A stretch of DNA of 64,000 nt from an uncultured Gammaproteobacteria bacterium (GTDB lineage Bacteria; Patescibacteriota; Microgenomatia; Levybacterales; UBA12049): the NCBI GenBank assembly GCA_964598995.1, contig CAZRDR010000021.1, positions 537 to 64,536 of the forward strand, given 5' to 3'. Numbering within the stretch: position 1 is the first letter of the stretch; the number at the start of each line of letters is the position of its first letter. Positions 1-59,118 of the stretch are shown here, in pieces. Under the pieces are notes generated by a model. That model saw only the letters and a program-made list of their open reading frames with translations. It ran no database searches and was not told the DNA's origin. A program made the position numbers and the translations under genes.

Positions 1-890
1 ATAGTTTTGTAACGGAGTTCTGAAGGAGTCTTACCAGAAAAACTTGATAGAGTTAATTTCTGAACCAACTGTTCCTTACCAGTTCCAGCCTCACCAACGA
101 GTACGACATTATTATTTTCAAGCTTTGCCAGGCTTTCAATTAACTTTTCGTACTCCTTCTCTCTTCCGACAATTGAGACGTCCTTCTCAGTCAAGCTATT
201 GGTGAAATTGCGGGTATATTTCTTTGTCTCAAGCGTCCAGCCATTAACGAGTACTTCACCGATCCCTCCGCCATTCCCTTCGATATGGAACTTACGGAGT
301 TCTTCCTCATACGGGAACTGCAGCCTCGTCCAAACTAAAATCTGCATGATGTCCTCAGGCTTTAGTTTTTTAGTAAACAACAACTTTGATTGGTCTTCCT
401 CAAGTAGTAAGTAAGCAGCTACGAGGTCCATCGTCGTAACTCTCTTACCCCCTACCTCTTTTGCTAATTTATAAGCAAACTCTGGCAATATAGCATTTTT
501 TAGATCAGATTTAGGCAGATCCTCTCTGGTGATATTTGCCCGTTCCAAGAAGAATCGGACTTGTGGATACTGAAGAAGATCGTGGATGACATGAGACGCC
601 TGCGTGTAATGATAGACAGACGCTAAAGCTGGGAATGTCATGACCTGGAGTGCCTCATGTTCGGTAACCTCGTTTACCGTCTGTTTGGATTGAATCCGCG
701 AAATTTTATACCGATAAAAAATCTCACTCATGATGATCACATTGAGAAGAAATAAAGGAATCGTCGGGGTAGAGTCCATCATCCACGCAAGCAGACTCAC
801 GAGCAGTATCAGGAGTACTAAGGTAATGCGTACAGCTTTACTGAGTGGATTTCGATAAAAACGATAAAGCGTAATAAAATGATAGTCCAT
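1..890 (-). CDS. Partial (C-terminus beyond window) membrane-anchored Clp-N / AAA+ ATPase paralog; start ATG at 890; degenerate Walker A GEAGTGKE
   Basis: Manual translation of the minus strand from the ATG at 890 gives MDYHFITLYRFYRNPLSKAVRITLVLLILLVSLLAWMM..., with an N-terminal hydrophobic anchor. This is followed by a Clp_N-like repeat region and then VGREKEYEKLIESLAKLENNNVVLVGEAGTGKEQLVQKL. That stretch aligns to the ClpA/B/C D1 motif IGRDEEIRRxIQVLxRRTKNNPVLIGEPGVGKT. No stop codon occurs before position 1. It is absent from the ORF track because it is truncated by the window edge. Confidence 0.5.
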   Translation of the reverse strand, partial: MDYHFITLYRFYRNPLSKAVRITLVLLILLVSLLAWMMDSTPTIPLFLLNVIIMSEIFYRYKISRIQSKQTVNEVTEHEALQVMTFPALASVYHYTQASHVIHDLLQYPQVRFFLERANITREDLPKSDLKNAILPEFAYKLAKEVGGKRVTTMDLVAAYLLLEEDQSKLLFTKKLKPEDIMQILVWTRLQFPYEEELRKFHIEGNGGGIGEVLVNGWTLETKKYTRNFTNSLTEKDVSIVGREKEYEKLIESLAKLENNNVVLVGEAGTGKEQLVQKLTLSSFSGKTPSELRYKT

Positions 891-901
891 AGTTAGTTAC
901 C

Positions 902-1231
902 TCACCAGATCAACAGCGCAACGGTAAATATCGGAAAGACGATAAACCCAATGATAAGCGCTGCTTCAAGCAAAAAAATCGGAACGAACAAGATGAGTGA
1001 GGTTAGAATCACCGCACTTTTAACAACGATCCCCATGCCGATTGAAAATCCGACGAGGCCTTTACGATATTCATTTTTGATCGGTTGAAAGAATGTCCGA
1101 AGTAAGAGTGATACTGAGAAAAATTGGAAAAAAGCTTTATTTACCTCGTGGAAGTATTTGAGAAGACGAATTGGTGCTTCGCCAAACCAAAAGGCAAGAA
1201 AATAAAACGGTAAGAACAGATAGGCAGCCAT
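902..1231 (-). CDS. Small polytopic membrane protein (109 aa, 3-4 predicted TM helices), hypothetical
   Basis: The ORF-track protein is dominated by hydrophobic stretches (LFLPFYFLAFWF, LVGFSIGMGIVV, ILTSLILFVPIFLLEAALIIGFIVFPIF). It sits between the two Clp-family genes on the same strand with short gaps. Confidence 0.4.
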   Translation of the reverse strand: MAAYLFLPFYFLAFWFGEAPIRLLKYFHEVNKAFFQFFSVSLLLRTFFQPIKNEYRKGLVGFSIGMGIVVKSAVILTSLILFVPIFLLEAALIIGFIVFPIFTVALLIW

Positions 1232-1294
1232 AAAGTAATACCCCCAAACGAAGAGGTACTTTCATCTTAGTATATTAAGAGGAGAAAACTCAAA

Positions 1295-4015
1295 TTAATT
1301 AGTAGATGTCGAGGAAGCACTCATGCCATTGGCCGAAGTTGTAACGCCATTTGCCCCATTAGTCGTCTCTTCCTTTAAGAAAGGTGGGTTAAAATCAGGA
1401 GTTGCGAACTGTTGTGCCTGTGGCGCATCAGGCATCGCGTGAGCGTCCCCTGTATCACTTGGAGCTGGAGTCTGAGGCTGTGGCTGATCAGGCTGGGTCA
1501 AAACGTCTTGTTGCGTAGTTTCATCGGCCTTTGCTTCACCTTGAAGAGGTGTGCCACTCCCCTTACCAAAACTGAAAGCTGATTTGGACTCATCGTAGTC
1601 GACCACGATCGTGTCACCTGGAACGAACTGTTTACTGATCAGGAGCATCGCAACTTGGTTCTCGATTGCTGTCTGGATCAGTCGGCGCAGTGGCCTTGCG
1701 CCATAGACTGGATCATAGCCTTCTTGAGCAAGCTGGGCAAGCGCTTTATCTGTTGCTTGCATATGATAGCCTTGTTCTTCAAGTAACTTTGCCGTCTTAG
1801 CAATACCTAGCTTGGCAATCTGGGCCATATCCTGTCGGCGTAATGGCTTAAAGATCACGACGTCGTCAAAGCGATTGAGGAGTTCTGGTCTGAAGAACTT
1901 GCGTAATTCATTAGTTACCATCCCAGCTAGCTCTGAGAATTTCTGCGCGAACTGAGCATCAGTCTGCGCAGCAGCCTGTGCTTCAGCTCCATCACTTAAC
2001 TGCTGCTGGATGAGTGCACTTCCGATATTTGAGGTACAGATAACAATCGTATTCTTAAAAGAGATCGTGTTCCCTTTATTATCTGTTAGGCGTCCATCCT
2101 CAAGTAACTGGAGAAGGATATTAAAGACATCAGGGTGAGCTTTTTCTACCTCATCCAAAAGCACAATCGAGTATGGCTTAGCTCTGACTGCCTCAGTTAA
2201 TTGTCCGCCTTCTTCATAGCCGACATAGCCTGGAGGTGCTCCAATAAGCTTAGCCACTTCGTGCTTTTCCATATATTCCCTCATATCAAGACGGATGAGT
2301 GCGTCATCACGCCCAAAGAGGATCTCGGCTAAGGTTTTAGCTAATTCTGTTTTACCTACTCCAGTCGGCCCAAGAAAAACAAAAGAGGCAATTGGGCGGT
2401 TAGCTGGCGCTAAACCAATACGGCCGCGACGAACTGCTTCAGAGACTGCAGCGACAGCTTCTTGCTGGTCGATAAGACGATCATGGATACGATCTTCAAG
2501 CTTAAGTAACTTAGCACTCTCATCTTCGGTTAACTTCGTGATAGGAATACCAGTCCAATTACTGACGACTTTCTCGATATCAGATTTAACGACAGTACTT
2601 CCTGTTGCTTGAGAGGTAACCGGAGATTCAGCCATGCCATTATTTTCAAGCTTTTTCTCTCCCTCTTTGGTATCTGCTTTCGTCTCAACTGCCTTCGTCG
2701 GACCAATCCGTCCTAACTTAACATCAGCTGCAGCCTCATCGATCAGATCGACTGCTTTATCAGGGAGGTACCGCTCACCAATATATTTTTTAGACAATTT
2801 AACCGCTGCGACTAAGGTGTCATCTGGGATAGTGACGCTATGAAACTTCTCATATTTCGGACGAAGCACCTTTAGCATCTCAACAGCTGCTTCCTCAGAC
2901 GGCTCGTCACAAAGGATAGGCTGAAAACGTCTTTCAAAAGCTTTATCTTTCTCAAAATACTTTCGGTATTCAGCAGTAGTCGTAGTACCAATGATTTGCA
3001 TCTGACCACGAGCCAGATACGGCTTTACGATATTTGAAGCGTCTAACGCGCCATCGGTATCACCTGCACCGATAAGTGTATGAATCTCATCGATGAAGAG
3101 AATTATTTTGCCCTCACTGGCAGTTGTTTCATTAATAATACTCTTGAGACGCTCCTCAAACTCCCCTCGATGACTCGCACCTGCGACCATTGATGCCAGA
3201 TCTAATTGATAGATCTTTTTGTCTTTCAAATCCGCTGGAACAGAGCCGCTGACGATCGCCTCAGCTAACCCTTCAACGATCGCTGTCTTTCCGACACCAG
3301 CTTCACCGATGATGATGGGATTATTTTTAGTACGGCGTAACAAGACATGGATAAGGCGATCGACTTCTTTTTCTCGTCCAGCAATCGGATCTAATTTGCC
3401 CTGGCGTGCTTGTTCGGTAAGATCAATTGCATAGGTCTCAAGAACAGACTTTTTACCCGTAGTATAGGTCGGATTTTTAGATAGCTTAGTTTGGATTTCT
3501 TCTTTCTTAACCCCTTTCTCATTAAGCATCTTTGAAACATCTGAATTGCTATTACAGAACGCAACTAATAGATCTTCAGGAGAAATGAAGGAAACACCGC
3601 GAGCCTGGACATCTCGGTATGCCTGTTCGAAAAGCTGAGTCGTTGCGTCACTCAAAGTCGCCTGCCCACTGTAGGTCCCTAAGACTTCTTTACCTTGTAC
3701 TTCTTTAGCAAGTGCAGCTACATCGACAGAGAAGCCACTAAGTAACTTATAAATATCCTCATCATACAAAAGACCAAGCAATAACTGCTCTGGATCGATT
3801 TTCTCATGGCGAACGCGTTTCGCTTCATCTTGCGCGTGGTGAAGGACCTGAGTCGTGCGTGCATCTAAGTGAGAGAGTGCTGAGATGTTTTGGCGAGAAA
3901 CAGGATCCATGCGTGAAGTAGGCATGCTTGATGCTTGAGGCTGATCTTGAGGAGGAACCTGCTGTCCTACAGGCGCAACAGGATCCTTATGCTGATTAAA
4001 AAGATTTCCTAACAT
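1295..4015 (-). CDS. clpC: ClpC/ClpB-family two-ring AAA+ chaperone with short middle domain, Q/P-rich N- and C-terminal low-complexity extensions
   Basis: It has a Clp_N-like N-domain, the D1 Walker [16 protein letters not shown] and the D2 Walker [18 protein letters not shown]. Only about 50 aa separate LIDEAAADV from WTGIPITKL, so the M-domain is short (ClpC/ClpA-like, not the long ClpB coiled coil). I could find no [ILV]GF ClpP-docking tripeptide in D2. The C-terminal roughly 110 aa are Q/P/T/A-rich low complexity. Confidence 0.85.
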
Positions 4016-4087: not shown

Positions 4088-7000
4088 CTACTCAGGCTTA
4101 TCTAATGGTATTGCTACTGCTTGCTCTTCAGTTTGAGATTTAGCGCAATTAGCTACATTCACGAGCGACTCTGGTTCGTTCGCTCCAGATAGCGTCGCGA
4201 GAGCCATCACAGCTGCTTCTTTTTTCGCTTTGAGATAACCAAGTACTTCATCATGGGAGAAGCCACCCAAAAGTAAGAAAGGTAGGATATCACCAACTAA
4301 CTTCATACCTTGCGTGATATTCTCTTCGGATTCTGATGTGAGGAGATTAATCACATTTTCTGTCTCTGACTTCTCCTCAGTAACCCATTCTTCTCTACTT
4401 TGTTCTTTATTTTCGCGAGTTTTTGGTACATCACCCTTGATAAATCGTTCATAAAACATCTTCTTGATCGCCTCATAGTCATCAAGGGATACTTTCTGCA
4501 CGTTATTCTGCTTAGGTAGTCGAGCCGGCTTAACTTTATGCTGTTGTTTTGCAAGCCTATCGTTAACAAGTTTTACCAGAACCTTAGCAAATGGATCGCC
4601 TTTCTTTTCGAGTTGTTGATAGATAGTGGTTATCTCCTGTTGAGTAGTACTTGGAATAGAGATAAATTGCTGCATAATCTGCGCAGCATTTTCGTTTTGT
4701 GTGCGGTTTTCAAGTAATAACACTCGAGCTTTATTTGCTGCAACAGGAGTGATCTCCCCATGTGCTAATGAAAGCAATGTCGATGAAACATTGTCAGAAG
4801 TTTTTTCTCTTTCGAGCGTTTCTTTAAGCGTAGAATAAACTTCTCTCAACTTGTCATCAGTGATCTGCAGAGGATTATCGAGATACTGTAGAAACTTCAT
4901 AGTACTCTGAGTCTGCTCAGCTGAAACTTTATCCATTACAGTCATGATTGTTGCAGCTGATTCATTGCCTGACTGACGTGACTTTACGAGTTCTTCTCGA
5001 GCAGAACGGAATTCTTGTTGAAGCGGGAGGGCAATAAGAGATGGATCAAGTACTCCCTGAAGTGTGTTCATAATTGCTGTTGGGGTATCCTCAATCAGTG
5101 GAGCCTCTGAACTTGCGGTCAAAGCCATAAGTGTTGCTGCGGATTGGTCACCTTGTGCTGTTCTCGTCTGGAGTGATTTCTTCAGGGAATTGAGTTGTGC
5201 TGACTCATCTGCAGTCAGACTCAAGTTTTGTAGAGACTTACTGAGTACCCGTGCGAGATCTCTCATACTCCCTTGCTGGCTAGACTGAGTCTCAAATGAG
5301 GCAACATCTCTAAGCGTAGGGACTGTGAGCTTAATCTGTGGAGCCGTCTGTAACGTTTGGTCAGCTTCAGATACAGTTACCTCTGCTGCCTGCATCGTCT
5401 GAGTGTTTGCAGTCTTTTGGGCAGTATTCTTCACTGAAAGAAGCGTTTGTTCATCTGACTGCTGAAGTGTCGTGAGGACACTCTTTCCAGCTTCTAATTT
5501 AGCTTTAAGATATCCAGTTATCTCCTCTTTAGAAAAGCCGCCTAAGAGAAGGAATGGTAAGATTTCACCAACTCTATCCATTCCCATTTGGACTTGGTTT
5601 GGATCACTTGAGGCTAGGAGATTAATCGTATCGCTGATATCAGTCGTCTCTTTCGTAATCCAGGCTTCACGAGTGGTATTAGCTGGTGGTTCTGCGCTCG
5701 AATAGTTATCAGACCAAAGTTTCTTTACACTTTCATAATCCTCAAGTGAAACTTGCTGAATTCGATTCTTGGTCGGAATAGTAGCTGAAGTCACACTCGC
5801 TGCTGCTGGATGAAGTTGTTTAGTAAAGGCCCTCAGGAGTGACGTCGCTAACGTATTATTAGTAGACTTTGCCTCGATAAGTTTTTTGTAGAGAGACTCA
5901 AGCCCTGCCTGTGTCTCTGGTTGAACTGAAGCCACTTCATCTTTAAGATAAATTGCTAACTCATCACCATGAGAAGCATTAGTATTGATGACTGCAATCA
6001 AGTTAACAATACTCTCCTGAGTGAGTGGAGCACGTAAAGTCTTGAGTACTAGTTGGGCTGTCGTATTTCTATCTTCACTTGCTTGGGCTACTCGCTCAAC
6101 CAACTTCTTATAATGCATTTGCTCTGATGCTGTAGATAAATTCTCAGGATTACTTAACCTCGTTAACAATGTCTCTGCGTCAGTCTGATAATTAAGCTTT
6201 AGCTTGGTAGCTTCGTTAGTAATCTCAACAGCGAGTGGGTCATTGGATCTCGTTAGTACCGCAAGCTTGTCATGCAGCTCCTGGAAATACTGAACGGTAT
6301 TTTTTTCTCCAGCAATTTCGGGAGTGACAAGAGCAAGCATGGTTGTTGCAAATTGACTACGTTCACTTTCAGACAGCTTACTTGGCAACGTCTCAAGCAA
6401 TTGTGTTGCACTCAGGATCATCGTAGCCAGCGGGTTGTTTTCACTACTTTCCTTGATAACTTCATCGCGAATCTGAACCATTCTTTCTCGCTCTTTAGTA
6501 TCGGTTATCCTTTCAGGATGAGACAGATGCTCAAGGACATTCTTAATACTGGTGATCTGTGATGACTCTTTCGTTTCTGACTTCGTCTCAAAGCGAGCAA
6601 TATCGGTAAGCTTAGGTACAGACAACTCAGTCTTTTTCAGAAGAGTTACATCAAATGGTGCATTTGGAGCAGCTGTCTGATTGACTACCGTATTCGTTTC
6701 ATCATTATTTGTCGTATTCGTAGTTGAGTAATTGTAGTTATTTACCACTGTCGTTGGCGCGCTAATTGAAGTATCTTTCTCATCGATTTCAGCTGAAGCT
6801 GCCAAGTGTTTTGTCTCAGTCTTTACTGCCTGCTTCGTTTCAACAAGAGTATCTTCTTCATCTTGCTGAGTTGTCGTATCCTCAAGAACGTTCTTGCCTG
6901 CTTCTATTTTAGCTTTGAGATAGGCGATCATCTCAGTCTGTGAGAACCCGCCGATGAGTAGGAATGGTAAGATATCTGAGACCTGCTGCATTCCTTGTTC

Positions 7001-9385
7001 AACTTCTTGGGGATTACTCGATGAGAGTAAATTCACTGTCTCTTGGATACTTGCGATGTCACTCTGGATCCATTCTTTACGACCTGATTGGCCGACAGGG
7101 ACTTCAACATTTTTATAATTTTCTTTCCACATCTTCTTAACCGCTTCATAATCCTCCAGGGACACCTGCTGGATACGGTTAACCTGAGGCAGAGTACCTG
7201 ATTTCAATTTGGCTGTGGCAGAGACAGGAGCAACTGCAGCTTTTTGTGATGTCAGCGTCTTTAACAGGAGCGTTGCGAGTGGATCGCCTTTTTTACTTGC
7301 TTCCTCAAGTGTCGTATGAAGTTGCTCCATGTCTTTCTCTGTTGTCTTATCAGAGGTAGAGACTGTCTTGAGAAGCTCTGCAGCTAATGGATTACCCTGT
7401 GCTTTGGCCTCAAGTAGCTGATCCTGGATCTTTCTAACCTGTTCAGGACTTGAAGCGTTATCGAGATTTTGGGCAAGCATCGTTGCTAACGGATTACCTG
7501 ATTTACTCGCAGCCATAATCTTCTCGCGAAGTGTCGTGTAGTTAGCCTTTTCACTTGTATTGGTTACTTTCTCTGGGTGCGAAATTCCCTGTAGAAGCTG
7601 CTGGAGGTTCGTTACTTGGTTAGTCGTGTAGTTATTAACATTATTAAGAATAGTCGTCGCGAACTGATTGCCTTCCTTTGCGGCTTTACCCAACTCTTGT
7701 TTGATCTCAACTATTTTCTGCTGGTCACGCTTAGAGGTGATGAGTGTCGGCTGCGCTAAGTGCTGTACGAGACTCTGCATCTGCTGGGAGACTGAAGAAG
7801 CCGATGACTGCGATGAGTAACTCGTATAGGTCGTGGCTGCATTAAGTATGTTCGTCGCGACAGAATTGCCTTTCTGACTCTCAGTCACTAACTTTTCTTT
7901 GATAACGCGCAGACGATCTCGCTCGGTGCTTGAGGCGACTGTGGTTGGATTCGCGATATTGATAAGAGTCTGCTTCATGCGCTCAATCTCACGCTGTGAG
8001 TTAACGTCATGACTCAGACGAGTCGACTCATAGCGAGCGATATCACGCATCGTCGGAATTGAAAGATTGGTCAGACGTGAAATTTCTGTCTGGTTATTGC
8101 GAGTTACGAGCGTTGGGCGTTCTACCGTTCGGCTGGCTGTAGTAGGAATATCTCTCGCAAGTCCCGTCGTCTTAGGGATTTCAAACCGCTTCGCAAATGG
8201 AAGAGCCCTTGCCAGTCCAGTCGTAGCTGGTGGAGGAGTTCCTGGAGGGAGCGGCGTAAGAGGAGCTACAGGTCTATTATTAAGCATCGTATAGACCTGT
8301 TTGATCAGAGGGTTATTCTGATAATTAAAGGCCATCATGTAGTCTAAAAAGATCTGCAGCAGAATAAATGGCAAAATAATCACCGTCCAGAGCATCAGGA
8401 GCGCAACTAGGTAGAGAGCGAAAGTATCAGGCAAATTCACACTATTATTAAGACCGATGTTCTGACCTGGGCCACCGAGTAAGATGTTAATAGCGGTCGG
8501 GTAGACAGCATCTGCTGGATTATTTACTCCTGAAAAATTAAAAATGAGCGGCAACCCTGAATGCCAGAGGCGAACCAGACCAGATAAAAATACAGCAAAG
8601 AGAGGCGCATAAAGTAACCATCTGAAGAATTCCCCCACCCAAATTTTGGCAGTATTTCGCAGTGGGTAAAACAAGAGAAGTAGTGGGAAGATGGGCGAGA
8701 CGATGATCAAGAACCACAGGATGATTTTACGGAAAATCAGGAGGATGACCATCGCATAATAGGTAAAGGCTGTAAGTTTTACTAGCAGTAATGAGATAAA
8801 GGCAGACTCATCAAAAGATTGGCCGAAAACCCGCAGTCCCTGAAACGACTGGTAATTAAAGCCAACATATAAAAGATCTTTTTGGGAAATAATTTGTCCG
8901 GCCTGGTTACGCAGGAAAAATCCTTGGAAGATATCAATAATTTGATAGAGAAACTGCACCAGCGAGAATGAAAAAGTCACAAGTAATACCACGAGGAAAA
9001 ATCGCGGCAGGAAGCGTTTGGCAGATAGACTTCTGCCTCGCGTTATGATCAAGATAAATGCTGTAACTAAAATAACGAAGAGAAAAAGTGCATAGACTAT
9101 TCGCTGAATCGTCTGCCAGAGTGGAACAAGCGGATTGTTACTATACGCACTATCTGATGCCCATTTATAGTCTCTTAGCGTCCAGTCCAGTAACTGACCA
9201 GAACGAGCAGCATTTTTACCAATAGTCGTAACCTCAGGGTCTTTAATCCATGAGCCCTCTTGAGGCAAATCTTGAGCTTGGACAGTATCGACCGCTGTAG
9301 TGTCAGCAGCGTGAATAATAGCTGTCGATAGCGGGCTGAGTAAAATCCCTAATACCAATAAAATCGAAACTAAATATTTTTTCAT
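4088..9385 (-). CDS. Giant (1765 aa) secreted/polytopic membrane protein: signal peptide + ~6 TM VirB6/TrbL-like N-terminal domain (aa ~1-375) followed by a ~1400-aa hydrophilic region built from three long tandem repeats
   Basis: A single 5.3-kb ORF. The N-terminus is MKKYLVSILLVLGILLSPLSTAIIHA, a signal peptide, followed by multiple long hydrophobic helices (IVYALFLFVILVTAFILII, FLVVLLVTFSFSLVQFLYQII, FISLLLVKLTAFTYYAMVILLIF, ILWFLIIVSPIFPLLLLFYPL, FALYLVALLMLWTVIILPFILLQIF). Next comes a Pro-rich linker (PVAPLTPLPPGTPPPATTG). The rest is three repeats, each beginning (I/V)P(T/K)(M/L)(R/T)D(I/V)A(R/S)(Y/F)E and ending RIQQVSLEDYEAVKKMW...ILPFLL(I/L)GGFS...YLKAK(I/L)EAGK. Its start codon overlaps the stop of the upstream pilin-like gene (TAATG). 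Confidence 0.8.
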   Translation of the reverse strand: MKKYLVSILLVLGILLSPLSTAIIHAADTTAVDTVQAQDLPQEGSWIKDPEVTTIGKNAARSGQLLDWTLRDYKWASDSAYSNNPLVPLWQTIQRIVYALFLFVILVTAFILIITRGRSLSAKRFLPRFFLVVLLVTFSFSLVQFLYQIIDIFQGFFLRNQAGQIISQKDLLYVGFNYQSFQGLRVFGQSFDESAFISLLLVKLTAFTYYAMVILLIFRKIILWFLIIVSPIFPLLLLFYPLRNTAKIWVGEFFRWLLYAPLFAVFLSGLVRLWHSGLPLIFNFSGVNNPADAVYPTAINILLGGPGQNIGLNNSVNLPDTFALYLVALLMLWTVIILPFILLQIFLDYMMAFNYQNNPLIKQVYTMLNNRPVAPLTPLPPGTPPPATTGLARALPFAKRFEIPKTTGLARDIPTTASRTVERPTLVTRNNQTEISRLTNLSIPTMRDIARYESTRLSHDVNSQREIERMKQTLINIANPTTVASSTERDRLRVIKEKLVTESQKGNSVATNILNAATTYTSYSSQSSASSVSQQMQSLVQHLAQPTLITSKRDQQKIVEIKQELGKAAKEGNQFATTILNNVNNYTTNQVTNLQQLLQGISHPEKVTNTSEKANYTTLREKIMAASKSGNPLATMLAQNLDNASSPEQVRKIQDQLLEAKAQGNPLAAELLKTVSTSDKTTEKDMEQLHTTLEEASKKGDPLATLLLKTLTSQKAAVAPVSATAKLKSGTLPQVNRIQQVSLEDYEAVKKMWKENYKNVEVPVGQSGRKEWIQSDIASIQETVNLLSSSNPQEVEQGMQQVSDILPFLLIGGFSQTEMIAYLKAKIEAGKNVLEDTTTQQDEEDTLVETKQAVKTETKHLAASAEIDEKDTSISAPTTVVNNYNYSTTNTTNNDETNTVVNQTAAPNAPFDVTLLKKTELSVPKLTDIARFETKSETKESSQITSIKNVLEHLSHPERITDTKERERMVQIRDEVIKESSENNPLATMILSATQLLETLPSKLSESERSQFATTMLALVTPEIAGEKNTVQYFQELHDKLAVLTRSNDPLAVEITNEATKLKLNYQTDAETLLTRLSNPENLSTASEQMHYKKLVERVAQASEDRNTTAQLVLKTLRAPLTQESIVNLIAVINTNASHGDELAIYLKDEVASVQPETQAGLESLYKKLIEAKSTNNTLATSLLRAFTKQLHPAAASVTSATIPTKNRIQQVSLEDYESVKKLWSDNYSSAEPPANTTREAWITKETTDISDTINLLASSDPNQVQMGMDRVGEILPFLLLGGFSKEEITGYLKAKLEAGKSVLTTLQQSDEQTLLSVKNTAQKTANTQTMQAAEVTVSEADQTLQTAPQIKLTVPTLRDVASFETQSSQQGSMRDLARVLSKSLQNLSLTADESAQLNSLKKSLQTRTAQGDQSAATLMALTASSEAPLIEDTPTAIMNTLQGVLDPSLIALPLQQEFRSAREELVKSRQSGNESAATIMTVMDKVSAEQTQSTMKFLQYLDNPLQITDDKLREVYSTLKETLEREKTSDNVSSTLLSLAHGEITPVAANKARVLLLENRTQNENAAQIMQQFISIPSTTQQEITTIYQQLEKKGDPFAKVLVKLVNDRLAKQQHKVKPARLPKQNNVQKVSLDDYEAIKKMFYERFIKGDVPKTRENKEQSREEWVTEEKSETENVINLLTSESEENITQGMKLVGDILPFLLLGGFSHDEVLGYLKAKKEAAVMALATLSGANEPESLVNVANCAKSQTEEQAVAIPLDKPE

Positions 9386-9798
9386 TAATGACTAACTCCT
9401 GGCAGCTGCAAAATGTCTACCAAGAAGACTTCGATGAATATAAAGCCGAAAATCGCGAGGAGCAGTCCTAAAACTGCATAAAAAATATAACTTTTACCGA
9501 CATTTACTTTTTCTGGTTTACCTTCTGACGTAAGGAGTGTATAGCCGCCGATAATGATAAAGACTAAGGCAACACCGCCGATAAGTCCCAGCCCAATACC
9601 ATAAAAACTCGTGACGAACTGGATAGGATCTGTAGGCAAACACCCAACTTCAGTCATCGCCTGATCTGAGGGACAACTCGGAGTTGGAGTAGGGACATCT
9701 GCAGCATAGGTAAGCTGAGAGGTAAGTACTAATAAGCAGAATGTTACAAGCACAAGGCTTGTGACCATTCGAATGATGTGGGCAGACATCTTTTTCAT
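9385..9798 (-). CDS. VirB2/TrbC-like pilin candidate (137 aa): long signal peptide, two Cys, two hydrophobic helices separated by a short charged loop
   Basis: MKKMSAHIIRMVTSLVLVTFCLLVLTSQLTYA|ADVP looks like a signal peptide with an A-x-A-type cleavage site. The mature part has hydrophobic helix 1 FYGIGLGLIGGVALVFIIIGGYTLL, a loop TSEGKPEKVNVGKS, and helix 2 YIFYAVLGLLLAIFGFIFIEVFLV. This is the classic T4SS VirB2/TrbC pilin topology. It is translationally coupled to the giant VirB6-like gene. Confidence 0.5.
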   Translation of the reverse strand: MKKMSAHIIRMVTSLVLVTFCLLVLTSQLTYAADVPTPTPSCPSDQAMTEVGCLPTDPIQFVTSFYGIGLGLIGGVALVFIIIGGYTLLTSEGKPEKVNVGKSYIFYAVLGLLLAIFGFIFIEVFLVDILQLPGVSH

Positions 9799-9883: not shown

Positions 9884-10756
9884 TTAAAACCACTTTTTCT
9901 TCGAGGATTCGGTATCGAACTGTTCAAGTAATTCTTTTTGCTTTTTACTCACGGTTTTTGGGATCACGACTTTTATTTTTACATAATGGTCACCCATGCC
10001 TGAGCCGCGGAGTCGCTGGATGCCTTTGCCGCGTAAGCGAATCAAGCTTTCAGGCTGCGTACCGGAAGGAATTTTAATCTTTACTGGACCTTGGACAGTC
10101 TCGACACTAATCTCACTGCCGAGGACTGCCTGTGGGAAGGTAATCTCCTCCTCAGAGATAACATCTGAACCCTCACGCTGAAATTTTTTATCTGATGCGA
10201 CGTCAAACACGATGTCATAAGTATCAAACCTCATCCTCGTTCCAGAATCAACTCCAGCTGGAACTTTGATCTTTTGTTTTTTACCATCGATGGTGACCTC
10301 TTTTTCTGTTCCGCTCACAGCCTCAGTAAATGAAAGCGAAAGAGAGTAGACCGGCCGACGTGATCGTGACCCAAAAGGTGAAGCACCGCCAAAAAACTGC
10401 TCGAAAATTTCAAAAGGATCTGAAAATCCGCCGAAGTCAAAGCCCTGGCCATTAGTCGTGTACGTGTACTGTCCGCCAAAACCACCAAAAGGCCCCTGAC
10501 CACCAAATGGTCCGCCAGCCCCAGCGCCTCCTTGCTCAAATGCTGCAGCTCCGAACTGGTCATACGTCTGACGCTTCTGTGGATCAGACAAGACCTCATA
10601 GGCTTTAGTAATTTCTTTGAACTTCTCTTCGCCTTCTTTAGTCTTATTACGATCAGGATGATACTGAAGCGCTAACTTACGATAGGATTTCTTAATCTCA
10701 TCCTGTGTTGCCGACTTAGTTACACCTAATAATGAATAATAATCTTGATTTGCCAT
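9884..10756 (-). CDS. dnaJ: DnaJ-class co-chaperone, type II / CbpA-like (J-domain + G/F-rich region + C-terminal substrate-binding domains, no CxxCxGxG zinc finger)
   Basis: The N-terminal [32 protein letters not shown] contains the HPD motif. A long Gly/Phe-rich linker follows. The four Cys-rich zinc-finger repeats are absent. It is the last gene of the hrcA-grpE-dnaK operon. Confidence 0.8.
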
Positions 10757-10757
10757 A

Positions 10758-11525
10758 TTATTTTTTAGCTCTTTTACTTAACTGAGTATATCGATCAAAT
10801 GCACGTGGACCGATGACAGTATGAGCAGTGTTTAACCCTTCAAACCTTCCATTTGGGTAGCCAACTGTTACTTTTGTTTCACGCTTAGTAAGAGCGTCTC
10901 TAAGATCATTATTATACCATGTCCTGCCTCCACCTAAGGTATAAAAGTGAGCATCAGATGAACCCACTGCACCACCTAACTTATCTCCGTATGAACTAAG
11001 ATTTGCAGAATAATAAGCGAGCGCTTGGTCGTTATTGCCGTTAAAACGTGGACTGAATTCAAGCCCCGCGTTATAGACCTCAAATCCATCAAAATACACA
11101 TAAGGATTTTTGCTATTTATGACTAGCTGAATACCCGTCTCTCCTATACCCTTAACAAGAACGGCGAATGGATGAACTGCTATTGCCAAACCATCCTGAT
11201 CGTGAATTGCTTCAAGTGTCCAATCGATATCTTTACCTTGAGGAATATCTGATTTGAGGTAAAGCCCAAGGACATGACCACCACTGGTAGAGATCTCTTC
11301 GCCTGGAATCAGTTCAGTTTCAGGAGAATAGACTTGCGCATAACCTTTCCCAAGAATTCCAGGTAAAAGAAAATTGTGATCTGTTACTCCAACAGCGCAG
11401 ATACCAAGTTCCCGAGCCACTTCGGTGATCTCATCGAGATTCATTTTCCCATCAGAAAATACCCCGTGGGTGTGAAGGTCTGCACATTTAGTTACTGTGT
11501 CTACTGATGAATAAATTTCTCTCAT
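10758..11525 (-). CDS. PHP-domain (polymerase/histidinol-phosphatase-like) metal-dependent phosphoesterase
   Basis: The N-terminal [38 protein letters not shown] matches the PHP H-x-H and D-H metal-binding motifs. It sits between dnaK and dnaJ with 1-2 nt gaps. Confidence 0.65.
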
Positions 11526-11590
11526 AAGGAATTAATCATAAAAAAGCCCCGTCACGAACGAGGCATAGTTTTATAGTTATCTATCTATTA

Positions 11591-13486
11591 TTACTCAACG
11601 ACTTCGCCTTCAACAGGCTCGTCTTTGTTTTTATCAGAATCCTTCTTCTCCTCTGATGTTCCTGTATTTTCAGATGAAGCATCGGTCGAAGTATTAGCAG
11701 CATTCATCGCCTCACCAATTTTCATAAGAGTATCTGACAGCTCTTTGGTCTTTGCTTCAATTTCATCTTTACTGCCAGATTCCAAAACATCTTTGAGAGC
11801 TTTAATCTTGTCCTCAACTTCTTTCTTAGTATCCTCTTGTACTTTATCCCCAGCATCTTTGAGAGCTTTCTCGGCTGTAAAGATAAGTGAATCAGCTTGG
11901 TTACGTGCCTCGACCTGAGCTTTTTTCTCTTCATCTTCTTTTGCATGCATCTCGGCTTCTTTCGTCATGCGCTCGACTTCATCCTTAGACAGGCCAGTTG
12001 ACCCCTGGATCTTAATACTCTGTTCCTTACCACTTGCTTTATCCTTAGCTTTAACACTGAGGATTCCACTTGCATCGATATCGAAAGTGACTTCGACCTG
12101 AGGCATACCACGAGGTGCTGGTGGGATACCATCTAAGATAAATCGACCGAGTGACTTGTTATCTGCAGCCATAGGACGCTCTCCCTGGAGAACATTAATT
12201 TCAACTTGTGTCTGGTTATCAGCTGCTGTTGAGAAGACCTGTGACTTACTGGTCGGGATAGTCGTATTGCGTGAGATAAGAGGAGTTGATACGCCGCCTA
12301 GTGTCTCAAGACCAAGAGTTAATGGAGTAACGTCTAGAAGTAACACATCTTTGACGTCTCCTGAGAGAACGCCTCCCTGAACAGCCGCTCCGATTGCGAC
12401 GACTTCATCTGGGTTAACTGATTTGTTAGGCTCTTTACCAAAGAACTTAGATACCGTCTCGACAATCTTTGGCATGCGAGTCATTCCGCCAACGAGTACG
12501 ATTTCATCTATTGCTGACTTCTCAACACCCGCATCTTTGAGCGCTAACTCAACAGGCTTTAATGTCTTTTGGACGAGATCATCGACGAGCTGTTCTAATT
12601 TCGCACGAGTTAAGGTCATCGTGAGATGAAGTGGACCATTTTCACCTTGGGTAATAAATGGCTGATTGATTTGTGCTTCTTGAGAAGTTGAGAGCTCGAT
12701 CTTTGCTTTTTCTGCTGATTCTTTCAGACGCTGAAGAGCCTGGGCATCTTTACGAAGATCGATATTATTTTCTTTCTTAAACTCATCTGCGAGGTAATCG
12801 ATGATGACCTGGTCGAAGTCGTCTCCGCCGAGGTGAGTATCACCATTGGTTGATTTAACTTCATAGACGCCATCACCAAGCTCCAAAATTGAGATATCGA
12901 ATGTTCCGCCTCCAAGGTCATAGACTGCGATCGTATGTGCATTTTGCTTATCGAGTCCGTAGGCGAGTGCTGCAGCGGTAGGCTCATTAATAATTCGCTT
13001 TACATCAAGTCCAGCGATCTCTCCAGCTTGTTTGGTAGCTTGGCGCTGACTGTCGTCAAAGTAGGCGGGAACAGTAATAACTGCTTCAGTAACTTTTTCT
13101 CCTAAATATGCCTCTGCATCAGATTTGATTTTCTGGAGGATCATAGCAGATACTTCTTGAGGAGTGTAGGTCTTACCATCAACTTCAACTACAGCCATAT
13201 CATCACGGCCTGCTTTGACTGTATATGGCAGCCATTTCATATCACGCTGGACTGACTCGTCATGGAACTTCTTACCCATCAGACGTTTTACTGAAAAAAT
13301 CGTCTCTTTAGGCTTTAAGACCATCTGACGCTTGGCCACGTCCCCTACGACATGCGTCTTTGGATCAACAACTGATGGGATAACATTTCTTCCCTCAGCT
13401 GAGTGGATGACCTTTGGTGATCCACCCTCCATCACAGCCATAGCTGAATTTGTTGTACCTAAATCAATTCCAATTATTTTTGCCAT
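11591..13486 (-). CDS. dnaK: Hsp70 chaperone DnaK
   Basis: Hsp70 signatures [18 protein letters not shown] and [10 protein letters not shown] are present. It is 631 aa and lies in an operon with grpE and hrcA. Confidence 0.95.
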
Positions 13487-13487
13487 A

Positions 13488-13994
13488 TTAATTACTTTCT
13501 TTCTGACCGTTTCCTACGACGACTTGCGCCGCGCGTAAGAGTTTGTCATGCAGCAAGTATCCTGTGCGTACTTCCTGTATAACAACTCCATCCTTACCCG
13601 GACCGGTAGTCACGACTTCCATAGTTACTGGATCAAAATCCTTTCCAATAGTCTCGATCTTGGTTACTCCATCAGATTTTAATGTCTGAAGAAATTGATC
13701 GGTAACTATTTTTAAAGTTCTGTTCTCTTCGTGCTGTTGAGCAAGTATTAATGTATCCAAAATTGGTAAAAATCTCAACAGTAATTCCTTGTTACTTGAT
13801 TGAATTAGAACCAATCGTTCTTCCCGTACTCTTTTCTCAAGATTCTGATAATCTGCGATCGCTCTTAAGCGAGCATTCTCAGCAATCTGTAATTTCTCCT
13901 CGCACTCATCGTGACTCTGCTCTTCGCGTTCGACCTCATTTACTGTCTCTCCAATCTCTTCTTCTGGTTTTGTCGTTTTCTTATCCATTACCAT
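13488..13994 (-). CDS. grpE: Nucleotide exchange factor GrpE
   Basis: It is 168 aa with a coiled-coil N-terminus and a GrpE-like C-terminus. Its position between hrcA and dnaK is canonical. Confidence 0.8.
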
Positions 13995-14728
13995 CCTTTT
14001 GCAACTGTCTCGATGAGGTCACCAAAGTAACGAACAGTCGGTACTACCATTGTATAGTTAAGTCGCACTGGACCAATTACACCGATCTGTCCTGCTCCAT
14101 GCATTGGCGTCTCGTACTGGGTATAGACAAAACTATACGGACCATGCAGTCTCTGACCTAAGTCTTCACCCATCAGAACATGAATGTCTTCGCTGTCAGA
14201 ACTAAATCTGCTACAGAGATCGAAGAAATAATCTTCCTCATCAAGTGTCGCTAAGAGCGTCTTGGTGATAACGATATCATAAAATTCAGGCATTTCTAAG
14301 ATATTTGAATAGCATGAGATGAAGACATCTCCTTCACTAGTTGTCGCGATAGCGAGTGTCCTTGTCTTATTTGCTAACGAGCGGGTTGCTTCCTTTAAGA
14401 AGCGCTGCATCTTTTCTCGGTAATCCCAAACTTTTTCTTTAAGCGCTACTTCCTCAACAGTTGATAGCTCTTTTTCCTTCATCAGCTGAGTTACATAGAA
14501 CTTCATACCGATAGGAGTAGGAACACGTCCAGCTGAAGAGTGAGGCTTTTTAAGATAGCCAAACTCAGAGAGTCTGACCATTTCATTTCGAATAGTCGCA
14601 GGAGAAGCACTAAGATTGTATTTCTTCTCAAGCGTCTCCGAACCTACCGGTTCAGCCGTATTGATGTATTCCTCAATAATAGCTTTAAGAATTTCAATCT
14701 GTCGTTGGGTTAGATTGTGCATATGCAT
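13988..14728 (-). CDS. hrcA: Heat-inducible transcription repressor HrcA
   Basis: It has an N-terminal winged-helix region (LTQRQIEILKAIIEEYINTAEPVGSETL) and HrcA length. It is the first gene of the grpE-dnaK operon, with a CIRCE-like operator just upstream. Confidence 0.85.
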   Translation of the reverse strand: MHMHNLTQRQIEILKAIIEEYINTAEPVGSETLEKKYNLSASPATIRNEMVRLSEFGYLKKPHSSAGRVPTPIGMKFYVTQLMKEKELSTVEEVALKEKVWDYREKMQRFLKEATRSLANKTRTLAIATTSEGDVFISCYSNILEMPEFYDIVITKTLLATLDEEDYFFDLCSRFSSDSEDIHVLMGEDLGQRLHGPYSFVYTQYETPMHGAGQIGVIGPVRLNYTMVVPTVRYFGDLIETVAKGW

Positions 14729-14740
14729 TACCGGACAAGA

Positions 14741-14767
14741 TTAGCAGTATGATAACAAGAGTGCTAG
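14741..14767 (-). promoter_or_regulatory. CIRCE-like HrcA operator (TTAGCAgta-N9-GAGTGCTAg vs consensus TTAGCACTC-N9-GAGTGCTAA)
   Basis: An imperfect inverted repeat with a 9-nt spacer, 13-39 nt upstream of the hrcA start codon (14728). Confidence 0.6.
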
Positions 14768-23851: not shown

Positions 23852-26038
23852 TTATGAGGCTGGTTGTACACCCAGGATCTCGACAGTTCCACCGCAGTAT
23901 TTGGTGATAATCTCACAGGTCTCACGTAACACTTTTTCAACCTGAGCAGGTGTAATATCAAAAACTCCATCGACGTTAATCAGCACATTTTTAGTTGTGA
24001 GACTAACAGCTGTCCGCAGACTATCACGATAATTAAGGTCAAGATTATACGGACCTTTTTGATCAAAATAAGCAAGCTCACCATCTTTACAGGTTGTTTT
24101 TTCGTCATCACCTAATAGAAGGATCGAATCAGTTGAGGTTGCGAGACAGAGCTCAGTCGGCAAAGCTATCTCATCCAAATCAAACGCTCCAACCGAGACA
24201 TGATGCTTCATAACAACCAGGTTATATGCATCAACAAGAGTATTAACAGTGTACAAACCTTTTTTTAAGGCAACTCGTCTTAAAAGAGCCTCAGGACTTG
24301 GTCTGCGCGAATGCCAATCAATTCCCATATCCTTATAGAGTTTTCTATAACTCACAATTTCAGGGAATGATCCGATCTGTTCTGTAGTAAGAGTCTCAAA
24401 CGAACTGAGTAATTCCTTTTTTGCTACTTCTAATTCCTTATCTTCTGTCTTAATAGTCACATTTTTAATAATCGCAACTCCAGTTGAGAGGGAAGGAAAT
24501 TTTTCAGCAGCAGCTGAATTAATAGAAAAAATCTCAGGCTTATTAAGTACTGTCAGTTCTTTTTCTTCGTTACGTGCTCCTGTTTGAGGTTTGTTCTCGA
24601 CTTTTAGCGTTGGGAAAAGAACAACTTCTTTAACTGCCCAGGTATTCGTCAAAAACATTGTTAAGCGGTCGATCCCGATACCAATGCCACCTGTTGGTGG
24701 CATACCGTATTCCATCGCCAGTAAGAAATCTTGATCAATCTGCTGGGCTTCCTCGCGGTCTTTGCGAGTTGCGTTGGTATCTTTGGTAAAGCGTTCGCGC
24801 TGGACTTGTGGATCAGTCAGCTCTGACCAGCCGTCAAAAATTTCTTTTCCGCCGACATATCCCTCAAATCGCTCAACCCAGCCTGGTTTGGAACGGTGAG
24901 GTTTGGAAAGTGGACTGATATCTTCTGGATAATCGATGATCCAGGTTGGTTCTTTGAGGGTTTTCGGGATAATATGATCAAAAATCATAAATATCAGCTG
25001 ACCTTTAGTCTCTCCACCTAAGATTTCCATCTGAGGACAGTGCTCTTTCGCAAATGCCAAAAGTGATTCAACTGTCGCTGTCTCAACATCAAGCCCCAGT
25101 CGTTCCTTCAGGATCGTTGCCATCTCAATTCGAGGCCATTTATTACCGATATCTATTGTCTGGTCATCTACTTGTAATTTGGTATCACCGTAAATTTTAG
25201 TTGCCAAATGCTTGAGTAGTCCCTCAGCAACATCCATGACCCGGTTATAGTCAGCATATGCTTCATACCACTCAATCATCGTAAATTCAGGGAAATGTGT
25301 CTGGTCAATACCTTCGTTACGAAAATCTTTACAGATTTCATAAACTCGTTCATAACCGCCGACTATCAGGCGTTTGAGATAAAGCTCATCTGCGATACGT
25401 AAGAATACATCTTGATCAAGAGCATTAAGGTGGGTTTTAAAGGGTTTGGCATTCGCACCGCCATAAAGCGGCTGAAGAGTTGGAGTCTCGACTTCCCAGA
25501 ATCCAAGTCCATCGAGGTACTCTCTAACTCCTCGGACGACTTTAGTACGCACATTAAAGCGTTCACGAACATCAGGGTTAAGTAGAAGATCCAAATAACG
25601 CTGTCGATAGCGAGTCTCAACGTCTTTGACGCCAAACCATGTACTCGGCAGAGTCCGCATCGCTTTAGTAAGAAGGGTATATTCAGTAGGTGCGACTGAG
25701 GTCTCACCAGCAATTGTCTTGACGACTTCACCTTTCACACCAATGATGTCACCAAGATCTAAGAGCTTAAGATTTTTAAAAGCCTCTGCCCCAAGGAGAT
25801 CTTTTTTGAAGAAAAGCTGGATTTTACCTGTCTCATCCTGTAAATCGGCGAAAGCGATATTCCCATGCTCTCGGAAAGACATGAGCTTGCCGGCTGTACT
25901 GACAGTCTCACCCATACTAGACAACGCGTCCTTGACCATGTGAGTCTTTGGATACGACGCAGCATAAGGATTCCAGCCTAGGGCTTTAATTTTCTCTAGT
26001 TTTTCTTTACGAACTTTTATTAATTCTGAATCATCCAT
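23852..26038 (-). CDS. lysS: Class II lysyl-tRNA synthetase with ~230-aa C-terminal B3/4-like (PheT editing-domain-like) extension
   Basis: An N-terminal OB anticodon-binding domain is followed by a class II core (motif 2 FRNEGIDQTHFPEFTMIEWY, motif 3 GIGIGIDRLTMFLT). After about residue 490 there is an extra domain containing LVDAYNLVVMKHHVSVGAFDLDEIA...LGDDEKTTCKDGELAYFD, which matches B3/4-domain hallmarks (AxN..s...g.p.hafDld). Confidence 0.85.
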   Translation of the reverse strand: MDDSELIKVRKEKLEKIKALGWNPYAASYPKTHMVKDALSSMGETVSTAGKLMSFREHGNIAFADLQDETGKIQLFFKKDLLGAEAFKNLKLLDLGDIIGVKGEVVKTIAGETSVAPTEYTLLTKAMRTLPSTWFGVKDVETRYRQRYLDLLLNPDVRERFNVRTKVVRGVREYLDGLGFWEVETPTLQPLYGGANAKPFKTHLNALDQDVFLRIADELYLKRLIVGGYERVYEICKDFRNEGIDQTHFPEFTMIEWYEAYADYNRVMDVAEGLLKHLATKIYGDTKLQVDDQTIDIGNKWPRIEMATILKERLGLDVETATVESLLAFAKEHCPQMEILGGETKGQLIFMIFDHIIPKTLKEPTWIIDYPEDISPLSKPHRSKPGWVERFEGYVGGKEIFDGWSELTDPQVQRERFTKDTNATRKDREEAQQIDQDFLLAMEYGMPPTGGIGIGIDRLTMFLTNTWAVKEVVLFPTLKVENKPQTGARNEEKELTVLNKPEIFSINSAAAEKFPSLSTGVAIIKNVTIKTEDKELEVAKKELLSSFETLTTEQIGSFPEIVSYRKLYKDMGIDWHSRRPSPEALLRRVALKKGLYTVNTLVDAYNLVVMKHHVSVGAFDLDEIALPTELCLATSTDSILLLGDDEKTTCKDGELAYFDQKGPYNLDLNYRDSLRTAVSLTTKNVLINVDGVFDITPAQVEKVLRETCEIITKYCGGTVEILGVQPAS

Positions 26039-59062: not shown

Positions 59063-59118
59063 GAGATAAGTATAGCAAAATCTCTTTAAGATTAACAGTT
59101 AAGAGTTTTGAGTGCTAA

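Follow-up and report, generated by a model that had tools for sequence, protein, structure and literature searches.

A membrane-anchored Clp-like ATPase with a degenerate first ring and its small membrane partner in Patescibacteria

We analyzed a window of 64,000 nucleotides (the whole stretch whose first lines are given above, from contig CAZRDR010000021.1 of assembly GCA_964598995.1), which opens within a gene, here called TM-Clp, for a membrane-anchored Clp-like ATPase. On the same minus strand lie the genes for a 109-amino acid small membrane protein (sm109) and for a canonical-type two-ring Clp ATPase of 906 amino acids (clp906). The initial annotation, made from the letters of the window, had described these three co-directional genes as a Clp module; the shared orientation was borne out, but the "three-gene Clp module" comes down to a core of two genes, sm109 and TM-Clp, beside an optional cassette. 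We lean towards the reading that the two core proteins would form a two-component membrane machine specific to Patescibacteria, in which TM-Clp would act as a tethered remodeler driven by the second (D2) of its two AAA+ rings. Clp/Hsp100 machines are textbook soluble unfoldases, and we know of no described integral-membrane member; our literature searches likewise returned no description of the TM-Clp family or of an integral-membrane Clp/Hsp100 protein.

Sequence and predicted structure of TM-Clp

Only the first 296 codons of the TM-Clp gene lie in the window. When this fragment was used as the query, it returned weak partial matches to ordinary Clp proteins only and missed the complete protein, so that a full-length query was needed. 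A look-up of sm109 led to a 70-kb public contig that holds the same genes with 100% protein identity, and on this contig (locus L001) the complete gene spans 10342-12750 and encodes 802 amino acids (P0011), of which residues 1-296 are identical to the fragment in the window. The proposal that the truncated third gene encodes a membrane-anchored Clp paralog rather than an ordinary soluble duplicate thus stands: the motif block VGREKEYEKLIESLAKLENNNVVLVGEAGTGKEQLVQKL was confirmed in the fragment, GEAGTGKE is encoded at 95..72 with the P-loop lysine followed by Glu, as first read, and residues 20-38 have a hydropathy of 2.47 (Kyte-Doolittle scale, 19-residue window). The two tandem AAA+ modules and C-terminal D2-small domain that mark class 1 of the Clp/Hsp100 family are present, and the precomputed Pfam assignments for the 802-amino acid protein include AAA_2 and ClpB_D2-small.

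When TM-Clp was aligned residue by residue with the structures of Thermus thermophilus ClpB and Bacillus subtilis ClpC, its first ring (D1) was found to lack three marks of an active ring, namely a GK[ST] Walker A, an hhhhDE Walker B, and the arginine fingers (Table 1). The same holds for its homologs, a set of at least 120 full-length sequences with 46-100% identity, in which motif counts were taken over 120 sequences and invariance over an alignment of 90; the named ones come from Levybacteria or Patescibacteria and carry only the label "ATP-dependent Clp protease ATP-binding subunit." The D1 Walker A pair reads K-E in 106 of the 120, R-E in 6, and K-T in 4, Pro replaces Asp in every frequent D1 Walker B variant listed, and the D1 arginine fingers and pore tyrosine are missing across the homologs. 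This recurrence in 120 homologs indicates that the unusual motifs are due neither to chance nor to sequencing error. D2 retains the motifs of an active ring, with both Walker sites, both sensors, and the arginine finger in place. Its Walker A is GPTGVGKT in 116 of the 120 homologs, and the Walker B Asp-Glu, the sensor-1 Thr-Ser-Asn, the Asn-Arg of LLNRFD, Arg-699, and the sensor-2 Gly-Ala-Arg-Pro (within GARPIRR in TM-Clp) are invariant.

Because the Walker B Asp is replaced by Pro and the Walker A Thr by Glu, and because the arginine fingers are gone, D1 would be unable to hydrolyze ATP, and the alignments support the view that it is built that way. Since the P-loop glycines and lysine are kept, binding of nucleotide or phosphate by D1 is still probable; with the Walker B Asp gone, its carboxylate may be made good by the Walker A Glu, which may thereby lock Mg-ATP in D1. 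Pro stands in Walker B in all members of the clade and GKT survives in Walker A in some, so that the Asp-to-Pro change was probably the earlier of the two. In mean pairwise identity, the large domain of D1 (0.57) stands between the N-domain (0.38) and the large domain of D2 (0.71). D1 is still under constraint, which points to a maintained pseudo-ATPase ring rather than to decay, and the intact D2 implies that TM-Clp as a whole is an ATPase. The earlier suggestion of a pseudo-ATPase therefore holds for D1, where the loss is broader than had been noted and extends to Walker B, the arginine fingers, and the pore tyrosine, but not for the whole protein.

The features by which a Clp protein threads its substrates or hands them on are also altered. 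A threading unfoldase carries KYR in the D1 and GYVG in the D2 pore loop, and neither is found in the TM-Clp family, in which the D2 loop follows the pattern PG[EQ]G[DEN]ERGE. Because the pore-loop tyrosines of both rings are missing, processive polypeptide threading of the ClpB or ClpC kind is unlikely. At position 348, in the second channel-facing loop of D1, the residue is always aromatic (Phe in 47 and Tyr in 43 of 90 sequences). No [ILV]G[FL] tripeptide occurs anywhere in the 802 residues, and the aligned ClpP-loop region is short and lacks it; without a docking loop, TM-Clp would not feed ClpP. Further, there is no insertion corresponding to the middle domain (M-domain) of ClpB, only 64 residues separating the D1-small motif from the start of D2, which argues that TM-Clp is not a DnaK-coupled ClpB. 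A tblastn search with Escherichia coli ClpP as the query found no clpP in the window, in agreement with the initial annotation, or in 1.28 Mb of related loci, which cover the flanks of the locus rather than whole genomes.

At the N terminus, two hydrophobic segments form a putative hairpin, with a family mean hydropathy of 1.7-2.1 across both, and AlphaFold2 predicts both as helices with a predicted local distance difference test score (pLDDT) of about 90. Basic residues flank both ends of the hairpin, which is compatible with a topology in which the hairpin would lie in the membrane and both termini and the ATPase in the cytoplasm. Glu-56, in the second hydrophobic helix, is invariant (90/90). 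The AlphaFold2 model of the protein, obtained from the 90-sequence alignment with a mean pLDDT of 85, consists in order of a short N-terminal helix, the two long hydrophobic helices, a helical domain (residues 77-191), and two AAA+ modules. Foldseek matches it best to protomers of ClpC, ClpB, and ClpA, with target-normalized TM-scores of 0.7-0.8 for the best-fitting ones, and alignments with Protein Data Bank sequences place D1 at residues 238-454 and D2 at residues 466-795. Pfam returned no Clp_N match in the window fragment; NCBIfam models align its residues 137-295 with the N-domain/D1 region of ClpA, ClpV, and ClpB, the ClpA and ClpV alignments starting at residues 137-140, which corresponds to the second Clp_N repeat only.

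TM-Clp belongs to a larger group. With a profile of its first 470 residues we searched 1.84 billion cluster representatives (50% identity) and examined the best 150 matches. Of these, 110 are full-length (700 amino acids or more), and about 88 of them are Clp-like proteins of 780-950 amino acids with an N-terminal hydrophobic anchor; the one member with a name comes from a Patescibacteria bacterium. According to the motif table, neither the D1 pore tyrosine nor the D1 arginine fingers occur in the anchored proteins, and GYVGY is missing from almost all of them, whereas the soluble matches in the same list retain all canonical motifs. In the wider clade, the D1 Walker A and B motifs are intact (GKT with DE) in some members and degenerate in many different ways in others, and some members keep a shifted Tyr or Phe in the D2 loop (e.g. 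PGEEY or PGMGY). In a neighbor-joining tree built from the AAA+ columns alone, a single split divides anchored from soluble proteins, with 111 of 112 placed accordingly. On these alignments, the features of the TM-Clp family are variations on those of a larger clade of Clp-like proteins with an N-terminal anchor.

The constant partner sm109 and the optional cassette

The product of the gene directly upstream, sm109, is very hydrophobic, with two to four predicted membrane passes, and is modeled by AlphaFold2 as a helical hairpin (pLDDT 92.5). No Pfam, NCBIfam, or PADLOC match was found for it, permissive thresholds included, and none of its 73 homologs has a Pfam domain. An invariant loop, T-F-F-x-P-x-K-x-E-Y-R-x-G-L, sits between its two long hydrophobic helices, and Lys-71, which lies within a hydrophobic helix, is invariant. 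A scan of one genome per species yielded 64 loci, 62 of them of the TM-Clp family, with record titles that read Levyibacteriota, Patescibacteria, or generic or other automated labels of metagenome-assembled genomes. When the window proteins were compared with all loci by tblastn, an sm109 homolog was seen directly upstream of the TM-Clp gene in all 62 loci in which both were detected, mostly with an extrapolated gap of −7 to +8 bp between the two genes. A small gene without Pfam match likewise stands right upstream in three distant family members from different gene contexts, and the sm109 profile picks exactly those open reading frames.

With a broadened sm109 profile, end-to-end matches were also obtained in longer family members, over their first ~110 residues (e.g. 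P0285, E = 5e-12; P0299, 3e-9; P0338, 1.5e-8; and others), from which it follows that sm109 and the ATPase are fused in some lineages. The fused cluster representatives are P0264, P0266, P0284, P0285, P0287, P0299, P0337, P0338, and P0352. Four of them keep an intact-looking D1 with GKT and a DE or DD Walker B (P0264, P0266, and P0337, and P0284 with DD) and may represent an earlier state of the system. We regard the fusions as strong genomic evidence that sm109 and TM-Clp would be physical partners. The two proteins carry opposite invariant charges in hydrophobic helices, and Glu-56 of TM-Clp and Lys-71 of sm109 could, hypothetically, form a salt bridge.

The relation of clp906 to this pair is different. 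Its Pfam domains are Clp_N, two AAA modules, AAA_lid_9, and ClpB_D2-small, and it aligns end to end with Staphylococcus aureus ClpC and with ClpB. The initial description of this protein was accurate: the ClpP-docking "AGF" segment of ClpC is substituted, the only [ILVMA]G[FL] tripeptides being LGL (residue 80) and IGL (residue 533), both away from the ClpP loop; a short low-complexity linker replaces the coiled-coil M-domain; and both tails are rich in Gln, Pro, and Thr. With a score of 914 bits against the TIGR03346 (ClpB) cut-off of 1232, and lacking both the M-domain and the ClpP loop, clp906 belongs neither with ClpB nor with ClpC as those families are defined. Its D1 pore loop has His in place of Tyr, a sequence shared by 35 of 40 orthologs, and the ClpP loop is missing in 33 of the 34 orthologs (of 40) in which the loop region could be scored; across loci L007-L068 the orthologs are 726-1513 amino acids long, apparently because of variable tails. 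Identity between clp906 and TM-Clp is only about 35%.

Among the 60 species loci with a full-length TM-Clp open reading frame, a canonical Clp open reading frame of more than 600 amino acids lies within about 10 kb in 36 and is absent from 24, which read dnaJ - (x) - sm109 - TM-Clp - nusA. Where it is present upstream, other genes frequently intervene between it and the sm109/TM-Clp pair. As to co-conservation of the three genes, a check that the initial annotation had suggested, sm109 and TM-Clp are adjacent wherever both were detected, and clp906 is not a constant neighbor. The presence of clp906 instead tracks that of a 137-amino acid and a 1765-amino acid protein, and the three, located between dnaJ and the sm109 gene, come and go together as one cassette in related genomes; the exceptions are L033 and L072, where the 137-amino acid protein is followed by a truncated Clp match without the 1765-amino acid giant. 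The 137-amino acid protein has four hydrophobic segments and a match to Pfam T4SS_pilin (VirB2-like) of 23.6 bits, just under the curated cut-off. The 1765-amino acid protein has a signal-like N terminus, about six hydrophobic segments, a TrbL/VirB6-like Pfam match of 24.0 bits, again just under the curated cut-off, and three C-terminal repeats spaced by about 420-470 amino acids, with the anchors VSLEDYEAVKKM at 741, 1212, and 1632 and ILPFLL.GGFS at 805, 1275, and 1700. The D1 Walker A of TM-Clp reads GKT in 11 of the 24 cassette-less loci (L009, L035, L038, L040, L048, L051, L054, L057, L060, L061, and L070, in all of which Pro is already in Walker B) and in 0 of the 36 cassette loci, counts that take no account of shared ancestry.

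In the window, hrcA, grpE, dnaK, a PHP protein gene, dnaJ, and the genes of the 137- and 1765-amino acid membrane proteins stand on the minus strand further upstream, and on the public contig the 802-amino acid gene is followed by genes for a membrane-anchored VWA protein and then by nusA, infB, rpsO, and pnp. The sm109/TM-Clp pair thereby lies between an hrcA-grpE-dnaK-dnaJ string preceded by a CIRCE-like (controlling inverted repeat of chaperone expression) element and nusA-infB. The window holds two CIRCE-like repeats, with three mismatches each, and two matches occurred in none of 100 shuffled sequences. Eight related loci also have CIRCE-like elements; in L009 the element spans 702-728, some 150 bp upstream of hrcA (at 878). 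In Levybacteria and their near relatives, the pair is located at the end of a string of HrcA-type heat-shock genes.

Proposed mechanism, related systems, and rival explanations

In the mechanism that we propose, TM-Clp would be a two-ring Hsp100/Clp-type ATPase that its two-helix hairpin would tether to the cytoplasmic side of the membrane. The hexamer would assemble on the inactive D1 ring and sm109, and D2 would be the only motor, its hydrolysis serving to remodel or pull membrane-embedded or membrane-proximal clients, with the machine as part of the stress and proteostasis neighborhood marked by the dnaK operon. The architecture, the motif states with their conservation, the gene pairing, and the fusions are seen in the sequences; the hexamer, the binding of nucleotide by D1, the complex with sm109, the clients, and the role in stress are what we infer. 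Several observations weigh against parts of this reading. Insertion of TM-Clp into the membrane is predicted from hydropathy and AlphaFold2 helices; promoter and terminator scans did no better than on shuffled sequence, and the operon is deduced from spacing and orientation only; distant family members sit in unrelated gene contexts, and the heat-shock link may consequently be local to Levybacteria and near relatives; and the aromatic residue at position 348, together with the shifted D2 Tyr or Phe of some wider members, may permit threading with non-canonical grips.

Compared with known families, TM-Clp falls well short of the curated cut-offs for ClpB (TIGR03346; 447 against 1232), ClpA (408 against 993), ClpV (TIGR03345; 369 against 885), and ClpK/ClpG (about 370-395 against 1900). 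Like ClpB/Hsp104, to which its best sequence and structure matches belong, it has two AAA+ rings, ClpB_D2-small, no ClpP loop, and a place near dnaK and dnaJ; unlike them, it has a membrane hairpin, a dead D1, no coiled-coil M-domain, and neither pore-loop tyrosine. With ClpC, ClpA, and ClpE it shares the two rings and, as in ClpA, a short D1-D2 linker, and its N-domain may be Clp_N-like in part; it differs from them in lacking an [ILV]G[FL] loop and in having a membrane anchor and a degenerate D1. Together with the ClpV score, the absence of type VI secretion families among the neighbor genes listed speaks against an assignment to ClpV/TssH. We also considered a defense system, which was rejected: PADLOC gave only generic ClpB-D2-like matches (DolB and PDC-M37B), for which clp906 scored comparably, and gave no match for sm109, the VWA protein, or the cassette proteins. 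A pairing of the MoxR-like AAA+/VWA type, which the VWA gene after TM-Clp had brought to mind, was rejected as well: an open reading frame assigned to the VWA protein is found in only 7 loci, and with its N-terminal anchor and Pro/Thr-rich linker the protein looks extracellular, so that it is not a core partner.

A division of labor between rings is found in NSF (D2) and in Pex1/Pex6 (D1), in which one ring serves assembly or nucleotide binding and the other works. These proteins belong to another AAA+ clade, are eukaryotic and not integral to the membrane, and have functional pore loops in the active ring. In FtsH and Msp1/ATAD1 there is only one AAA module, of the classical kind, and its pore loops are aromatic. 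As in TM-Clp, an N-terminal transmembrane anchor puts their hexameric AAA+ ring at the membrane face; neither is in the Hsp100/Clp clade, and FtsH carries a protease domain. One paper describes FtsH as the only known membrane-anchored AAA+ protease family (PMC8943139). The closest working analogy is Torsin with LAP1/LULL1: Torsin is a Clp/Hsp100-related AAA+ protein with an N-terminal hydrophobic segment at the membrane, no aromatic pore loops, and the membrane-spanning partner LAP1 or LULL1 (PMC5425593). Torsin has a single AAA module, takes its arginine finger from the cofactor, and is a luminal protein of the eukaryotic endoplasmic reticulum and nuclear envelope, unlike TM-Clp, which has two rings, its own D2 arginine finger, a small non-AAA partner, and an ATPase that would face the cytoplasm. 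TM-Clp is therefore no Torsin, as the number of modules and the source of the arginine finger tell, and what they share is membrane association and the loss of aromatic pore loops. A bolder reading, which we consider less likely than not, is that the Patescibacteria as a lineage have a previously unrecognized membrane machine in which sm109 is paired with or fused to an integral-membrane Hsp100 protein, with D1 a nucleotide-binding pseudo-ATPase and the threading tyrosines lost from the channel; such a machine would be a bacterial, Torsin-like, non-threading membrane remodeler.

The main rival to the tethered remodeler is a true threading motor that extracts membrane proteins or dissolves aggregates close to the membrane, like Msp1 or a protease-less FtsH, with non-canonical grips and with sm109 as a gate or adaptor. 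It has in its favor the invariant aromatic residue in the second D1 channel loop, the shifted Tyr or Phe in the D2 loop of several wider members, the intact D2, the anchor, and the adjoining dnaK operon. Both canonical pore-1 tyrosines are nevertheless replaced in the Levybacterial clade, in which the D2 loop is also two residues shorter and charged, and loss of the aromatic pore loops is stated in general terms to abolish processive threading in characterized Clp/Hsp100 proteins (PMC5425593), so that we consider a threading motor rather unlikely for TM-Clp. A part in the quality control of membrane proteins, which the initial annotation had offered as an alternative, is plausible.

The initial annotation had first suggested a regulatory or adaptor-like pseudo-ATPase. 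As such, TM-Clp might form mixed hexamers with clp906 or recruit it to the membrane. The two genes are co-directional and close in the window, a canonical Clp lies a few kilobases upstream in 36 of the 60 species loci, and every cassette-bearing locus type has the Walker A Glu, GKT occurring only without the cassette (0/36 versus 11/24). These points are outweighed by the 24 loci without a canonical Clp nearby, by the genes often inserted between the canonical Clp and TM-Clp, by the covariation of the canonical Clp with the VirB2/VirB6-like cassette rather than with TM-Clp, and by the low identity of the paralogs; moreover, the intact D2 is at odds with a pure pseudo-enzyme, and the correlation of GKT with the cassette ignores shared ancestry. 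We therefore judge an adaptor of clp906 improbable. It is very improbable, too, that TM-Clp energizes a secretion or conjugation-like apparatus built from the VirB2-like and VirB6-like proteins, whether the VWA protein takes part or not. In favor are the cassette directly upstream, the membrane-anchored VWA protein directly downstream in the closest relatives, and the anchor of TM-Clp itself; yet the sm109/TM-Clp pair is kept in the 24 cassette-less loci, the VWA open reading frame is present in only 7, both VirB matches stay just below their cut-offs, and the flanks examined showed neither VirB4 nor VirD4. That TM-Clp is a decaying, non-functional Clp duplicate we can hardly credit. Several D1 catalytic motifs are indeed destroyed, but the open reading frame is full-length in at least 120 sequences of 46-100% identity, the replacement residues (Walker A Glu and Walker B Pro) are themselves conserved, and the catalytic residues of D2 are invariant.

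Gene neighborhood and implications

The coordinates of the features discussed are collected in Table 1.

Table 1. Features of the TM-Clp locus in the 64-kb window and motif replacements in TM-Clp
Feature	Position	Strand	Basis or remark
TM-Clp (membrane-anchored Clp-like ATPase), first 296 codons	3..890	-	Translation; ATG at 890, runs off window start
TM-Clp N-terminal hydrophobic hairpin	702..848	-	Helix 15-37 at 780-848; helix 43-63 at 702-764
TM-Clp helical N-domain, residues 77-191, possibly Clp_N-like in part	318..662	-	AlphaFold2 helices
TM-Clp D1 Walker A GEAGTGKE, residues 266-273, degenerate	72..95	-	Aligned to ClpB GEPGVGKT
TM-Clp D1 Walker B			ClpB/ClpC LFIDEL, TM-Clp LYIPEF (Asp to Pro)
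TM-Clp D1 arginine fingers			ClpB/ClpC ERRFQP, TM-Clp NQLFTP (both lost; LNQLF replaces ERRF)
TM-Clp D1 pore loop			ClpB/ClpC AGAKYRGEFE, TM-Clp AGATTQGELQ (Tyr lost)
TM-Clp D2 pore loop			ClpB/ClpC GYVGYEEGG, TM-Clp GQGEERG (two-residue deletion, no aromatics)
sm109 (109-amino acid small membrane protein)	902..1231	-	Open reading frame; 11 bp upstream of TM-Clp
clp906 (906-amino acid canonical-type two-ring Clp ATPase)	1295..4015	-	Open reading frame, Pfam, NCBIfam
Optional cassette with clp906	4088..9798	-	1765-amino acid protein, 4088-9385; 137-amino acid protein, 9385-9798
CIRCE-like inverted repeat	14741..14767	.	Just upstream of hrcA (13988-14728, -); heads hrcA-grpE-dnaK-PHP-dnaJ string

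Some further genes were noted. The VWA protein, encoded just outside the window (L001 12806-13909), has 367 amino acids; its N terminus carries a membrane anchor, a linker rich in Pro and Thr is present, and the VWA domain passes the Pfam cut-offs; such an open reading frame was assigned in only 7 related loci, the other genomes having different large secreted proteins or nothing at that place. The second CIRCE-like repeat of the window (59092-59118) precedes a fused ABC transporter gene (57296-59062), which is not an expected HrcA target. Elsewhere on the minus strand (23855-26038), a 728-amino acid protein combines a class II aminoacyl-tRNA synthetase core of the Asp/Lys/Asn type, with an anticodon-binding oligonucleotide/oligosaccharide-binding fold, and a C-terminal B3/4 domain. 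The B3/4 domain is normally found in the β subunit of phenylalanyl-tRNA synthetase, and the fusion is therefore unusual.

The anchored proteins make up a large monophyletic clade with three coordinated changes, namely loss of the pore-loop tyrosines, progressive degeneration of D1, and an obligate small membrane partner. Because the D1 series runs from an intact GKT/DE in some fused forms to the fixed GKE/PE of Levybacteria, the clade offers a natural series for asking why an inactive AAA+ ring is kept, and it allows one to ask how an Hsp100 protein works without canonical pore loops. TM-Clp and sm109 are small enough for expression and testing. Overall, the pair is a candidate membrane-proteostasis system in uncultured organisms with very small genomes and unusual envelopes.

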